From assembly GCA_964016885.1 (NCBI GenBank), contig OZ024742.1, positions 265,112,001 to 265,176,000 of the forward strand: a stretch of 64,000 nt of DNA. Reading direction: 5' to 3'. Positions 26,050 through 42,371 of the stretch are shown here, one piece after another. The DNA comes from Eledone cirrhosa. Its lineage: Eukaryota. The position numbers were made by a program, and so were the translations under genes. The notes under the pieces were generated by a model. That model was not told the origin of the DNA, did no database searches, and worked only from the letters and a program-made list of their open reading frames with translations. Position 1 is the stretch's first letter. Each line of letters opens with the position of its first letter.

Positions 26050-26134
26050 TGTTTCCTGATGATTTCGAAACTCGTTGATTTATCCATGATCGGATATTTC
26101 CAAAAAGCAAATGAAACCTCCGGGGGTAGAAACA
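26050..26134 (+). ncRNA. Type I hammerhead ribozyme motif, intact core
   Basis: tgtttc CTGATGA [50 nt, t...t] GAAA cctcc-ggggg TA gaaaca. 6-bp stem I, quasi-palindromic stem III, GUA site. Stem II is irregular. Confidence 0.75.
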
Positions 26135-27354
26135 TAATTTTGGTATGTTTATGTACATTTTTTCTTCTAACTTTGATTTTGTACCTAATTGTGTATGGTT
26201 AGCTATATGTCTAGTCAATTTCTACGGGCTATTAGAAATACTAGGTAAATATTCTGTGGCTGTTGATCGCGGATAAAATAGCTATAATTTATTTATCTAT
26301 TATTTCTTCATAGGTACATTTTAAACTTATAGCCTCGTTTAATTGATTTTTTATGTGGTTGATTATGCTGATTGGGAGGAGAAATACTGTATATATTTTG
26401 TCAAATGATTCTATGGACTTACTTTCTTATATATATATATATATATATATATATAAATATAAAAACACACACATATAAAATGACTAATTGCCTTTGATGT
26501 GTCTAGCCATAAAGGAACTAGGGTCGGCTTAAAGGTGGTTCGAAGGCTGACCATGACATTCTCATGGAATGACCAAATGAGGTATAATTTTCAAAAAGTC
26601 CCTTGAATAAAACAAAGCAGATATTAATAAGTAAAGTTGAAATTAATGCATACAATATTTCACAGTTCTAGCATCAATCTTTTATAGCCAGCCTATGAAT
26701 GTTTCAGTTATTCAATACCCGAATAACAAAGCTTATAGTGCTTGAAGAGTCACCCTTTCCTCCGAATTACTATTACATCAGGGTTAACTCTGCAGAATGA
26801 CCATTTCTACCCAGTGGTGAACTAAATTTAAACGTGTGTGTGTGTATATATATATATATATATATATATAAGTTATTCCGGGTTCAATCGGGGGTAACTA
26901 CAGTAAGTAAGGTAATTAATACATAGCAGAGTATAAATGTTTTAATATAGAAAAGCTTATACGAATGAAACAGTTCTAGTCCTGTAGAATTTTCTATATT
27001 GAAATATATATATATATATATATATATATATATATATATATATATATATATATATATATATATATATATATATATATATATATATATATATATATATATG
27101 TATATATATATATGTATATATATATATATATGTATATATATATATATTATTTATATATACATATTAAATTCAAAGTTGTGGATGCCATCTTTGAGAAATC
27201 TCAAACATATCCAATGATATAAATGTATAATAGGATACATCAATCTTTAACAAGAGACAATTTGTATAGAATGTAAGAATACATAGCTCGTTACAGTATC
27301 ATATTAAAATTTAACAAAAATTTAAAACATAGATACCTGATAAAAATCATATAT

Positions 27355-27442
27355 ATCTCCCTCATATGTATCCTTCATAAAAAGGAATACATTTCACCAA
27401 ATATCAGTCAGATAATCGATGTGGATCGTCAGTGAGGGAAAT
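27355..27442 (-). ncRNA. Type I hammerhead ribozyme motif, intact core, long stem III
   Basis: Minus strand: atttccctca CTGACGA tcca..tggt GAA atgtattcctt-tttatg-aaggatacat A tgagggagat. 10-bp stem I, ~10-bp stem III, AUA site. Confidence 0.85.
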
Positions 27443-39135: not shown

Positions 39136-41739
39136 TGGTGTTTTCATACAAGCATACAACGGCGCATGCCTGCACATGTACATCTATACATGTGTATCCT
39201 TTATTCATATAGAGTTTGGTATAACTTATGAATGTAAGTATTTGTTGTATTACTTTTGATGAACTAAATAATTGTTATCGTCTACAGCAATCTGGGGTAT
39301 AACATTATAAACCTTTCCTGTAGCACAGCACTTCCACATAAGAGTAGATTATGTACTAAGGATCCTGAATCAATAGTATAGACATTATTCAAATTTTAGA
39401 TATATTTGGTTAGTTGCTCTTTATACCGTATAACACTTACATCCCATCACATCAGTAATTCCATTCTTCAATTTTAGAAATTATGACATAGCTTTATATT
39501 GACTATTTGATTTAATACTTAATATAGTTTTATATTCAATTAAGTAAATTTAAAGTTAATTATAATTATGACCAAATAAACATTTAACTAAGTATTGGTA
39601 TGTGGAGCTCTGTAAATATATTGATATAATAATTACCTTTCAAGTTTTAATGAGTATCTTTAATTTAACAACACAACACCCTCTTTTTTATATAGAAACA
39701 TTATACATATATAACACTTATACGCCTTTTATAGCTTAACTGGTCTTAACTTATTCTTAGGGATATGTAATTTGTTAATTGTCTTATTTATCTATTAACC
39801 TTAACTACGTACGTACACATTTATACTTAATAGAGTTATCTCTTTGAGAGACAACTTTGTCTTCTGGTTACTTACTAAATGCAATCCGAGATAAAAATAT
39901 TACTTTCACCGTACTATCCGTTAAACAACAATAAGAAAACATGGCAAAAGATATATTCCACAAATTTATAAAAACCCGGAAAAAATTCTTTCAACTAATT
40001 TTCAACTAATTTTCTGTAAATTCAAATTATGATATGGTTTCGTTGATTTCTATTGCTTGATGTCAGTTAATGTTTTATGTGACTAAAAACTGAAATTAGT
40101 TTATACCACTCTGAGGAAGAAAGTATCTCGTGTGGGAATCGCTAAAGTCTGTTCATTAAATAAAAGAAGTTGATCGTTTGCGACAATTAGTCGAATTCAT
40201 TTCACAGTTGAATTTCATTTTATCACAATTGTAAGTGATTACAACTGTTTTTAATAAAGATTGATTTTCTTCAAATAATTTTGAATATATATATATATAC
40301 GTATACATATATATATATATATATATATATATATATATATATATATATATATGTGTGTGTGTGTGTGTGTGTGTGTGTGTGTGTGTGTGTGTGTGTGTGT
40401 GTGTGTGTGTGTGTGTGTGTGTGTGTGTATTTATATACACGGTGGCGTAAACGTCATGCATCATCATGTCATGTAAATAATATATAAGCTTCTCGCTTCT
40501 CATATAAAGGTTTTTATTTTTTGTGATTAGGATGGTGCATGTCTTTCGCGCCATCCTGTATATATATTAATATAAGACGGCATAACTACAGTTTTGAGGC
40601 CCCATTTGACTTTGTTTTCACACAACTTTCTTCATATTGCATATTTTGTAAAAATATTTCTTCGAAAGTGTAGATTGCAATTATGCTGATAATCTTTTTT
40701 TTATTGTCATCTCCACTTACAGAAATTACCGGAAGGTAACTCTGATCTTAAAACGAAGACTTGCCAAATTTAATTTCTTTATAAATAAATAAACATTGTT
40801 GGCATATAAACAAAATTTATATAATAAATATCATTAAGAAAAATTAATACATTTCAATTAAAAGGATACTTATACCTTGTGTGTGCGCGTGTATATGTAT
40901 ATATATATATATATATATATATATATATACATATACACATATATATATATATATATATATATATATATATATATATATATATATATATATATATATATAT
41001 ATATATATATACTCTTTATTATGGCTAAATTGTGCATCTTATTACTTTCGAGTTTCATCTGTTCACCTATGTGATCATCATCATCATCTCTCTCTCTCTC
41101 TCTCTCTCTCTCTCTCTCTTTATATATATATATATATATATATATATATATATATATAATATAAAATCAAAAGATGGTTAAAAGAGTTCCATGTATTAAA
41201 TTATGCGCATTTCAAAAACAAATATCATCATGGGATGATATTTACGTTCTCGTCAGATAAAATAGGGAGACATGATATGAAGCTTAAAAAACAGTTGCGA
41301 GCAGTGATGTGCTAAATCAACATATGAAAAATAAAATAAGAGGGATATATGAGATTGGGAAAAAAAGGAAAGGAAGGGGGAAGGAAAAGGTAAGGAAGAG
41401 GAAGAAAGAATATAATAAGAAAAAATATATATAATAATAAGGAAAGGATGACGGAGGAGAAGTATAAGAAGGAAGGATGAGAGATGAGGAGAAAATGAGT
41501 GAGAGAGAGAGATAACCTTTAATACTGAGAAACACTGTCTCACAGAGAGAAATAAAAAAAAACGTTGTAAGATAATACATAATTTAAAAGAAATTTAGAA
41601 ATTAAAAGTTAATGAGGTTTATGAATGGTGATGCTTATGATTAAAGAAAAATGAATTAAGAATCATATTTATTTAAGGTTTATATATTGAAGGACCTCCT
41701 ACATTATATATATATATATATATATATATATATATATAT

Positions 41740-42371
41740 ATATCAAGATAAGCAGAACAAGTAAAATTCAACCAATTTTTCAAAATAAATCAAAATTAAT
41801 ATACAATTAAAATTAATCAAAATTAAAAAATATAATATAAATATTTACCTATTCAAATGGCCCTAACTGTACAGTTTCACTTTGCAAAACATTAGATATC
41901 ACGTAGATATTAATGGAAAAGCAAAGATCATCAGAGAAGCATTTTCCTATCCTAGGGTTAAAAACCCCAGGAACAACAAAATATATGACCTCACTCCAAC
42001 TAATACAGGTCTGAAAGGTCGTGAAAGTGACCCATAAATACGTTGGTGTATAGTGAAGGCGGGAAATCATAGACTAGCCGTCTATGATCGCTACCAAAAA
42101 AGATTTTTAGTAACTAAATAGAACGACAAGATTTTTCTCTACATACTGGAGAATATTGAATAAGGTTAATATATATCTGAGGGTACAATGTACCCCAGGA
42201 AATATATAGTGTGTCTATGATTTAAGGTGGTTCTATGGTAATAATTTGATATACCAGAACTTAATATCAAGATAAGCAGAACAAGTAAAATTCAACCAAT
42301 TTTTCAAAATAAATCAAAATTAATATACAATTAAAATTAATCAAAATTAAAAAATATAATATAAATATTTA
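41740..42371 (-). mobile_element. Non-coding HHR-bearing element, 524-bp unit plus 108-bp terminal direct repeat, inside (TA)n (retrozyme / PLE-pLTR-like)
   Basis: 41740-41847 is identical to 42264-42371. There is one HHR between them and no credible ORF. Confidence 0.8.
41855..41944 (-). ncRNA. Type I hammerhead ribozyme motif, intact core, long stem II
   Basis: Minus strand: aaatg-c-ttct CTGATGA t-ctttgc..cattaatatc-tacgt-gatatctaatg..gcaaag-t GAAA ctgtacag TT aggg-c-cattt. Palindromic ACTGTACAGT stem III. Confidence 0.85.

Follow-up and report, generated by a model that had tools for sequence, protein, structure and literature searches.

Hammerhead ribozyme motifs with U·U at positions 10.1-11.1 in retrozyme-type repeats of Eledone cirrhosa: new examples of a known variant

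A 64,000-nt stretch of the Eledone cirrhosa genome (assembly GCA_964016885.1, contig OZ024742.1, positions 265,112,001 to 265,176,000 of the forward strand; hereafter the window, numbered from its first letter) holds four hammerhead ribozyme motifs, A to D, in which U·U replaces the usual, though not obligatory, Watson-Crick R10.1-Y11.1 pair of stem II. A sequence-only reading had taken them for a new, functional and lineage-enriched variant that arose independently in four unrelated elements. Does the locus hold such a variant, decayed ribozymes or examples of something already known? Direct inspection bore out the four motifs: each has the type I hammerhead fold and the U10.1·U11.1 mismatch, with the catalytic core (CUGANGA, GAAA and UH) intact. 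Three helices with an open helix I are clear in A, B and C; helix I is weak in D. Stem II pairing restarts at 10.2-11.2 in all four motifs, not in three only as first described.

Motif A (26050..26134, + strand) has U10.1 at 26063 and U11.1 at 26112, and its predicted cleavage after 26128 (GUA) is based on sequence, descriptor and family alignment. Its stem I pairs TGTTTC (26050-55) with GAAACA (26129-34), the core CTGATGA lies at 26056, GAAA is present and helix III is a 12-nt palindrome. Motif B (27356..27441, - strand; U10.1 at 27425, U11.1 at 27396) is predicted to be cleaved after 27365 (AUA) and has a 9-bp stem I, its core at 27432 and a long, intramolecular helix III. The compact motif C (34248..34290, - strand; U10.1 at 34277, U11.1 at 34264) has predicted cleavage after 34254 (GUA), stem I ACGATG/CATCGT, its core at 34284 and the palindrome ACUAGU as helix III. 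Motif D (41857..41942, - strand; U10.1 at 41927, U11.1 at 41879) carries a GUU site, its core at 41934, a 6-bp stem II, a 10-nt palindromic helix III and a weak stem I of two Watson-Crick and two G·U pairs with a mismatch next to them. The weak stem I and the GUU site recur in nearly all family D copies. As they stand in the window, A and C each have a private stem II mismatch, and in the family majority four base pairs are restored. An alternative register, with a bulged U after A9 followed by a 10.1-11.1 pair, was rejected by eye on the family majorities, since A, B and D would then show U·U or C·U and the stem of C would be broken.

The minimum-energy fold of motif B includes all three helices (z -4.3); the full hammerhead was not the minimum-energy fold of monomeric A, C or D. 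In these three, helix III forms little or no hairpin and its self-duplex reaches -22.1 (A), -4.8 (C) and -13.4 kcal/mol (D); the helix III hairpin of B is worth -8.8 kcal/mol.

A bare text pattern, the gap limit of which left out A and D, was non-significant, with two matches in the window and at least two in 10 of 100 shuffles. The full descriptor found seven cores in the window, three of them U·U, where shuffled sequence gave on average 0.34 and 0.04; motif D fails its strict stem I filter and passes a looser version. The window also holds hammerheads with U-A (15813/15906) and G-C (30262 and 32755), which the sequence-only reading left unmentioned. None of the four motifs reached an Rfam gathering score, and only C matched an Rfam hammerhead model at all (HH9, 17.2 bits versus the 52 required); the long inserts in stem II may be as much a cause of this as U·U. 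In a whole-window Rfam scan no hammerhead was among the 150 of 189 matches listed, which were microsatellite-driven and nearly all to miRNA families. The expectation that standard searches would miss the variant thus held for Rfam and failed for a general RNAmotif descriptor, which caught published U·U cases.

U·U reflects the state of each family rather than decay, because it is present in nearly all best-matching unique copies of A (28/28), B (19/20), C (37/38) and D (32/34), these copies being the top BLAST matches to the window sequences and so biased towards the window's alleles. The sequence-only reading was right on this point. In the old family B the core is better conserved than the flanks (0.010 vs 0.054). 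The four monomers show no BLAST similarity to one another at E<0.01, as that reading had also claimed; four independent origins are nevertheless not established, since A-D may owe U·U to one shared ancestor of Hydra type, and G-C, A-U, U-A and C·A occur as well at this position in the genome.

Judged by their sequence, A-D are abundant repeats of retrozyme type, that is, short non-coding head-to-tail units with one type I hammerhead each. Element A (25807..26434, + strand) spans 0.9 of a 706-nt non-coding monomer (95.7% by BLAST) and has a (TA)n end; a short inverted piece (25776..25811, - strand) adjoins its 5' end, forming a palindrome at 25776-25851. Element B (27207..27491, - strand) is a 5'-truncated copy of a monomer of about 580 nt (586/577), and C (34037..34295, - strand) a 5'-truncated copy of a 424-nt monomer, with an inverted family C piece (34293..34474, + strand; BLAST to the monomer) adjoining its 5' end. 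Element D (41740..42371, - strand) is very young, with 1.2 copies of a 524-nt monomer (99.2% identity), a repeat spacing of 524, a terminal redundancy of about 110 nt and a (TA)n end; 6 of 40 family D matches are 100% identical. The longest ATG ORF in the monomers is 33-73 aa, and their GC content of 30-37% lies under the 45% limit for non-LTR retrozymes. The head-to-tail arrangement is seen in A, C and D from tandem pairs or arrays, and in B from terminal redundancy only. Circular folds gave z of -6.6 for C and -6.2 for D, whereas A and B reached no more than about -2.

The copies bear insertion signs of the Penelope-like element (PLE) type: partial tandems, 5' truncation, inverted 5' pieces and, except in B, fixed 3' ends. 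(TA)4 stands at the 3' end of 29/30 A, 13/20 B, 25/30 C and 28/30 D copies, against a 10% background. More than one unit is present in 9, 3, 18 and 15 copies of A, B, C and D, respectively, and an inverted 5' piece in 11, 2, 15 and 9. A single 3' end position is shared by 22/30 copies in A and likewise in D; the 3' ends of B are scattered.

Hydra-like coding elements are abundant in this genome (65,317 and 59,496 first-look candidates), with open frames of 739-979 codons from stop to stop and 3' UTRs of up to about 2 kb. A motif scan of the candidate helpers found RWK, DKT, the CxCX5C linker and, at the C-terminus, GIY-YIG, the scan of family 3 covering the linker and GIY-YIG half; a Pfam search of them gave no RT or EN match. 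One coding family (L321) ends in a U·U hammerhead in 3 of 6 extended copies; of three Hydra-like coding families that were examined, two have G-C in place of U·U. That A-D might be 3' ends of families 1 or 2 was rejected, as these end in G-C hammerheads and have no sequence in common with A-D. No sequence of A-D was shared with any coding element among the loci examined, and same-strand PLE coding within 2.2 kb upstream was found for 0/59 motifs of C, 0/16 of B, 1/22 of D and 1/17 of the A lineage. A Hydra-like endonuclease fragment (27498-28144) adjoins B, with no B sequence after the fragment. Since no sequence link from A-D to a coding element was found at these loci, the helper that likely serves them is one that we infer. 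What A-D do share with derivatives of the Hydra clade is the (TA)n target and the Hydra-type hammerhead architecture.

We consider it probable that the retrozyme-type repeats in which the U·U hammerheads are fixed are copied into (TA)n microsatellites by the RT and endonuclease of Penelope-like elements, the Hydra clade being their probable group. Tandem or read-through transcripts would be cut after H17, with A, C and D working for the most part in dimeric form, by way of the palindromes in helix III, and B possibly as a monomer. Unit-length RNA would then be circularised by a host ligase or left multimeric, and reverse transcription by the helper would begin from a fixed internal position and continue beyond one unit. 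U·U would be the best-tolerated mismatch at a relaxed position; it would preserve stacking beneath the A9·G12 pair, slow the reaction somewhat and bring no new catalytic solution.

When pair types were tabulated with 10.1 and 11.1 left free, as the sequence-only reading had proposed, U·U proved the commonest and other states appeared beside it: the 94 motifs of an unbiased 1-Mb sample comprised 35 U·U (13 of them from one tandem array), 20 G-C, 19 A-U, 10 C·A, 6 U-A and 4 others. Because the sample spreads over these pairs, the 10.1-11.1 position is relaxed in this genome and U·U is not exclusive. U·U characterises 7 of 21 multi-copy families; C·A is fixed in another (9/9 copies), and U-A and A-U are fixed in others. 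Among 55 copies of the A lineage, 29 have U·U and 24 have G-C; neither G·U nor U·C occurs. The sister families A (U·U) and A' (G-C) are 78-84% identical, with the core and the first stem II pairs alike, and family F03 holds a U·U/A-U pair at 93% identity. In the tree of the A lineage, which has a midpoint root only, two U·U copies lie on the G-C side, a hint that U·U may be the older state. Two other comparisons were set aside: a look-alike G-C family of C (F13) is not a firm sister (67% over 242 nt outside the core), and B and F17 do not match past a microsatellite.

Short-stem-III PLE hammerheads are reportedly the subject of Lunse et al. 2017, which may cover U·U too. A natural U10.1-U11.1 core variant is presented as rare in the text of Perreault 2011 (PMC3088659), which also names U·U the best-tolerated mispair in earlier mutagenesis; the mismatch is identical here, where it makes up about a third of motifs. 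When the literature was searched by position name for C·A and further mismatches at 10.1, only that paper was found. In File S2 of Craig 2021 (PMC8557442) we counted U·U in 14 of 25 Hydra-clade families, including those of Hydra, sea cucumber and copepod, so that it is the majority state, followed by G-C (7), G·U (2), U·C (1) and a bulged G with A-U (Hydra-1_Obim); the other 24 have no bulged base after A9. The authors call these hammerheads 'canonical', and the relevant passages leave U·U undiscussed. Hydra-clade PLEs share the (TA)n target and the extended palindromic helix III with A-D; unlike them, A-D encode nothing. Searches for a paper joining octopus genomes, Penelope elements and hammerhead ribozymes found none, Craig 2021 being the only relevant work. 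Nothing supported taking U·U hammerheads for the 'missing' Naiad ribozymes, as the table matches in the supplement of Craig 2021 are Hydra-clade and an unsystematic look found no Naiad link. The minimal PLE hammerheads of Cervera & De la Pena 2014 (PMC4209133) resemble A-D in being type I, PLE-associated and palindromic in helix III, with dimer-dependence described there. In the consensus given there, A9 is followed by a bulged base and 10.1-11.1 is G-C, a type to which just 2 of the 99 motifs sampled here belong; in Fig. S3 of that paper, the rows for Hydra and D. willistoni appear to carry U·U, which the figure text shows in part only.

A close likeness, from the published description, is the axolotl non-LTR retrozyme Rtz_353 with HHR_Amex2 (Cervera 2020, PMC7229834), whose type I hammerhead bears U·U at the helix II base in about 60,000 retrozyme copies, likewise built of short, low-GC, non-coding head-to-tail units. 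It cleaves in vitro, to 22% as a monomer and efficiently as a dimer, and circRNAs were detected for it. The units here are longer (424-706 vs about 350 nt) and mostly dispersed as copies of 1-1.3 units in (TA)n, often with a long stem II insert. Neither novelty nor lineage specificity of U·U can be upheld against these sources.

Recurrence of U·U in axolotl, Hydra, sea cucumber, copepod and, as far as the figure text shows, D. willistoni, its leading place in the sample and among multi-copy families, and the missing intermediates of the A lineage would also fit positive selection of U·U as a rate dial, slower cleavage letting unit-length circles or tandem templates last until reverse transcription. 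We regard this as rather unlikely: fixation of C·A, U-A and A-U fits tolerance, an AT-rich context favours U, the G-C sister families amplify too, one array supplies much of the U·U count and the absent intermediates may only reflect a few unsampled masters. Equally doubtful is its wider form, a genome with 200,000-300,000 hammerheads in dozens of Hydra-clade-driven retrozyme families, where 10.1-11.1 would be an evolvable dial tuning the cutting of RNA circles, sisters flipping between G-C and U·U by a concerted double change and others fixing C·A.

The cleavage reported for the axolotl U·U hammerhead (PMC7229834) is the reason why we hold A-D to be probably functional. That the hammerheads are vestigial, or mere structure for RT binding, with U·U a sign of lost catalytic constraint, is improbable. 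Hammerhead mutants of an anole PLE had no effect on insertion in vitro (PMC11167929), stem I of D is weak and the genomic 3' ends lie away from the predicted cleavage site; against this, the core, three helices and palindromes are preserved over 27 sequence clusters with unrelated stems, the family B core is conserved and the axolotl ribozyme is active. It is very improbable that coding PLEs gave rise to A-D as ordinary 3' ends with 5' truncation or as by-products of internal deletion, and that A-D are thus not self-propagating non-coding units. Although most copies are below or near one unit with PLE-type ends and a coding element has as its 3' end the related U·U family F06, independent copies loop upstream into their own unit at a fixed junction, one locus (L282) holds a tandem array of 15 motifs with a 424-nt unit, and no coding remnant or link was found at the loci examined.

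We return to tolerated U·U in retrozyme-type repeats, probably mobilised by PLEs, of which A-D are new examples and not a new variant. What is new is modest: a density of about 100 hammerheads per Mb, a Hydra-like coding element with a U·U hammerhead at its end, and a clean G-C/U·U switch between sister families. U·U is not rare, being the majority state in the Hydra-clade PLE hammerheads of File S2 and making up about a third of those sampled here; descriptors and Rfam models therefore undercount animal hammerheads. The A/A' pair, the F03 pair and the C·A family are natural amplified alleles for measuring the cost of this base pair, and the estimated hammerhead load of this genome would equal or surpass the 126,247 motifs reported for axolotl.

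Direct reading of four hammerheads in the window (A, B, C and D) showed an intact CUGANGA / GAAA / UH core and U at both 10.1 and 11.1, the first pair of helix II beside A9 and G12. The U·U mismatch picked out by the sequence-only reading is a real feature at all four sites, and was well spotted. In hammerhead A (26050-26134, plus strand), helix I is 6 bp long, the helix II region spans 50 nt, helix III is a 12-nt palindrome and the site is GUA. Hammerhead B (27441-27356, minus strand) combines a 9-bp helix I with a long helix III, and its minimum-energy fold includes all three helices (z -4.3). 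Hammerhead C (34290-34248, minus strand) is compact with an ACUAGU palindrome, and in D (41942-41857, minus strand) the U·U is followed by a perfect 6-bp helix II, but helix I is weak and the site is GUU. The bare text pattern was within chance, 10 of 100 shuffles matching the 2 hits visible to it. The full fold was beyond chance: the full descriptor found 7 cores in the window, 3 of them U·U, whereas shuffled sequence averaged 0.34 and 0.04, respectively. D was recovered only when the helix I filter was loosened. The Rfam threshold was not reached by any of A-D. The window also contains hammerheads without U·U, namely an inverted U-A pair at 15768-15951 (15813, minus strand; 15906, plus strand), which forms a long palindrome and whose family shows C·A too, and two G10.1-C11.1 hammerheads on the plus strand (30262-30310 and 32755-32812).

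In DNA searches of the 3.0-Gb source genome, first-look candidates numbered 1468 (A), 222 (B), 2791 (C) and 840 (D); 40 per family were scored and 30, 20, 30 and 30 loci returned. After removal of duplicates from overlapping loci, U·U was kept in 28/28, 19/20, 37/38 and 32/34 copies, fractions that are biased upward because these copies are the most window-like. Window copies A and C have helix II mismatches of their own that the family majority sequence repairs, and in the old family B the ten core columns diverge by 0.010 versus 0.054 overall.

Each family is a non-coding unit closing on itself (A, 706 nt; B, 586/577 nt; C, 424 nt; D, 524 nt), with a GC content of 30-37% and a longest ATG frame of 33-73 aa. 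No similarity was found when the four units were compared with each other. Copies end at (TA)n in 29/30 (A), 13/20 (B), 25/30 (C) and 28/30 (D) cases versus a 10% background; 9, 3, 18 and 15 copies, respectively, exceed one unit, and 11, 2, 15 and 9 carry an inverted 5'-end piece. The 3' end is fixed at one position in 22/30 copies of both A and D and falls into two clusters in C, lying 128-308 nt beyond the cleavage site rather than coinciding with it. This insertion pattern is the one shown by Penelope-like elements (PLEs) as outlined in Craig 2021 (PMC8557442), and fits the internal RT initiation described in Frangieh 2024 (PMC11167929). Short head-to-tail units that lack coding capacity and contain a type I hammerhead are classed as non-LTR retrozymes (Cervera 2020, PMC7229834), and a 2026 preprint argues that retrozymes are non-autonomous PLE derivatives (10.64898/2026.07.22.740005).

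The U·U hammerhead is a known variant, assayed in axolotl. HHR_Amex2, with ~60,000 copies carrying U·U at the helix II base, was cleaved to 22% in monomeric form and efficiently in dimeric form, and circular RNAs were described (Cervera 2020, PMC7229834). Among the 25 Hydra-clade families with hammerheads in File S2 of Craig 2021 (PMC8557442), our own count gave U·U in 14 (two with identical motifs), G-C in 7, G·U in 2, U·C in 1 and a bulged G with A-U in 1. U·U also appears to be present for Hydra and D. willistoni in Fig. S3/S5 of Cervera 2014 (PMC4209133). The proposal of a new, recurrent, conserved, functional and lineage-enriched variant in four unrelated elements thus loses its novelty in substance to these published axolotl and Hydra-clade motifs.

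Hammerhead load was determined in an unbiased sample of 100 evenly spaced 10-kb blocks (L191-L290, 1 Mb), scanned with 10.1/11.1 unconstrained. The scan found 99 motifs, spread over 36/100 blocks; reversed sequence gave 1, and three shuffles gave 1, 2 and 2. This density of ~100 hammerheads per Mb, in at least 21 families, would extrapolate to roughly 200,000-300,000 motifs in the genome. The 94 motifs scoring at least 9 comprised U·U (35), G-C (20), A-U (19), C·A (10), U-A (6), C·U (2), A·A (1) and A·C (1). Since three tandem arrays contribute 31 of the 99 motifs, including 13 with U·U, family counts are fairer than motif counts. Across all loci examined, 21 clusters with at least two motifs were G-C (8), U·U (7, of which 4 were search targets), A-U (2), U-A (2), C·A (1) and bulged (1); the 21 clusters seen in the unbiased sample were G-C (8), U·U (6), A-U (3), U-A (2), C·A (1) and bulged (1). 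On these counts U·U is co-dominant with G-C, and position 10.1/11.1 is relaxed.

Other states were seen. C10.1·A11.1 occurs in 9/9 copies of cluster F08 (L221:6464, L257:1729, L277:9437 and others; spacing 522-544 nt; GUU site), and a literature search by position name found no published report of C·A there. A·A is present in two copies of a hammerhead-like motif (L003:1040, L076:463). A U3-A8 core covariant appears in several families (L255:7017 in F17; L213 and L279 in F09; L196 in F18; the L181-L188 3' UTR), including one also with U·U and a young coding Hydra-like family. Hammerhead units of 310 and 424 nt form satellite-like tandem arrays (L241, L246, L282).

The sister family of A, termed A' (unit 686 nt), is 78% identical to it over 465 nt. 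The 55 unique copies of the A lineage carry U·U (29), G-C (24), G·G (1) or a gap (1), and G·U or U·C in 0/55; the lineage changes cleanly between U·U and G-C. Two U·U copies group on the A' side, and the switch may have gone in either direction. In family F03, the U·U and A-U versions are 93% identical.

Hydra-like coding sequence is very abundant, occupying 16.5 kb of the 1-Mb sample. [quoted passage not shown] Their 3' ends carry a G-C hammerhead in family 1, one with a U3-A8 core and G-C in family 2, and a U·U hammerhead in family 3, present in 3/6 extended copies and continuous with the endonuclease in L321. Open frames are unusually long (739-979 codons stop to stop), and two families have 3' UTRs of 1.2-2 kb (L171-L190, L321-L350). 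No sequence link between A-D and the coding elements was found among the loci examined, so we infer mobilisation by Hydra-clade proteins from the (TA)n target and ribozyme architecture common to both. Broken Hydra-like PLE coding fragments lie in the window at 3249-4150, 27498-28144 and 37912-39113, the second beginning right where element B, on the opposite strand, is broken at its 5' end. The repeats at 24304-25750, tandem as well as inverted and ~510-635 nt long, are probably another PLE end; they finish near 25732 with the opening half of a minimal hammerhead of the bulged type. The broken RT fragments at 35549-36537 (minus strand) belong to a different PLE clade, Neptune/Poseidon-like by their motifs. 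Large LINE-type RT/endonuclease fragments (16344-20803 and 22215-23734, minus strand) are unrelated to the U·U hammerheads.

In the hammerhead core, G12 acts as the base and the G8 2'-OH as the acid, with a metal site at A9/G10.1. With a U·U wobble, stacking beneath A9·G12 would be retained and the G10.1 contact lost, predicting slower but real cleavage. In A, C and D, helix III has far greater stability as a self-duplex than as a hairpin, and cleavage is accordingly predicted for transcripts that are in tandem or paired; B would be expected to act by itself. The cleaved units would be closed into circles or serve as multimers, and a helper would nick (TA)n, begin at a fixed internal site and be able to continue beyond one unit. 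Against this inferred route of cleavage, circles and helper stand the folds of A, C and D as monomers, which are not the hammerhead, the weak helix I of D, and PLE insertion in vitro described as needing no hammerhead activity (PMC11167929). What is new here is families A-D; the genome that contains them has an unusually high load of hammerheads, and its natural allele pairs of U·U with other 10.1/11.1 states are useful.
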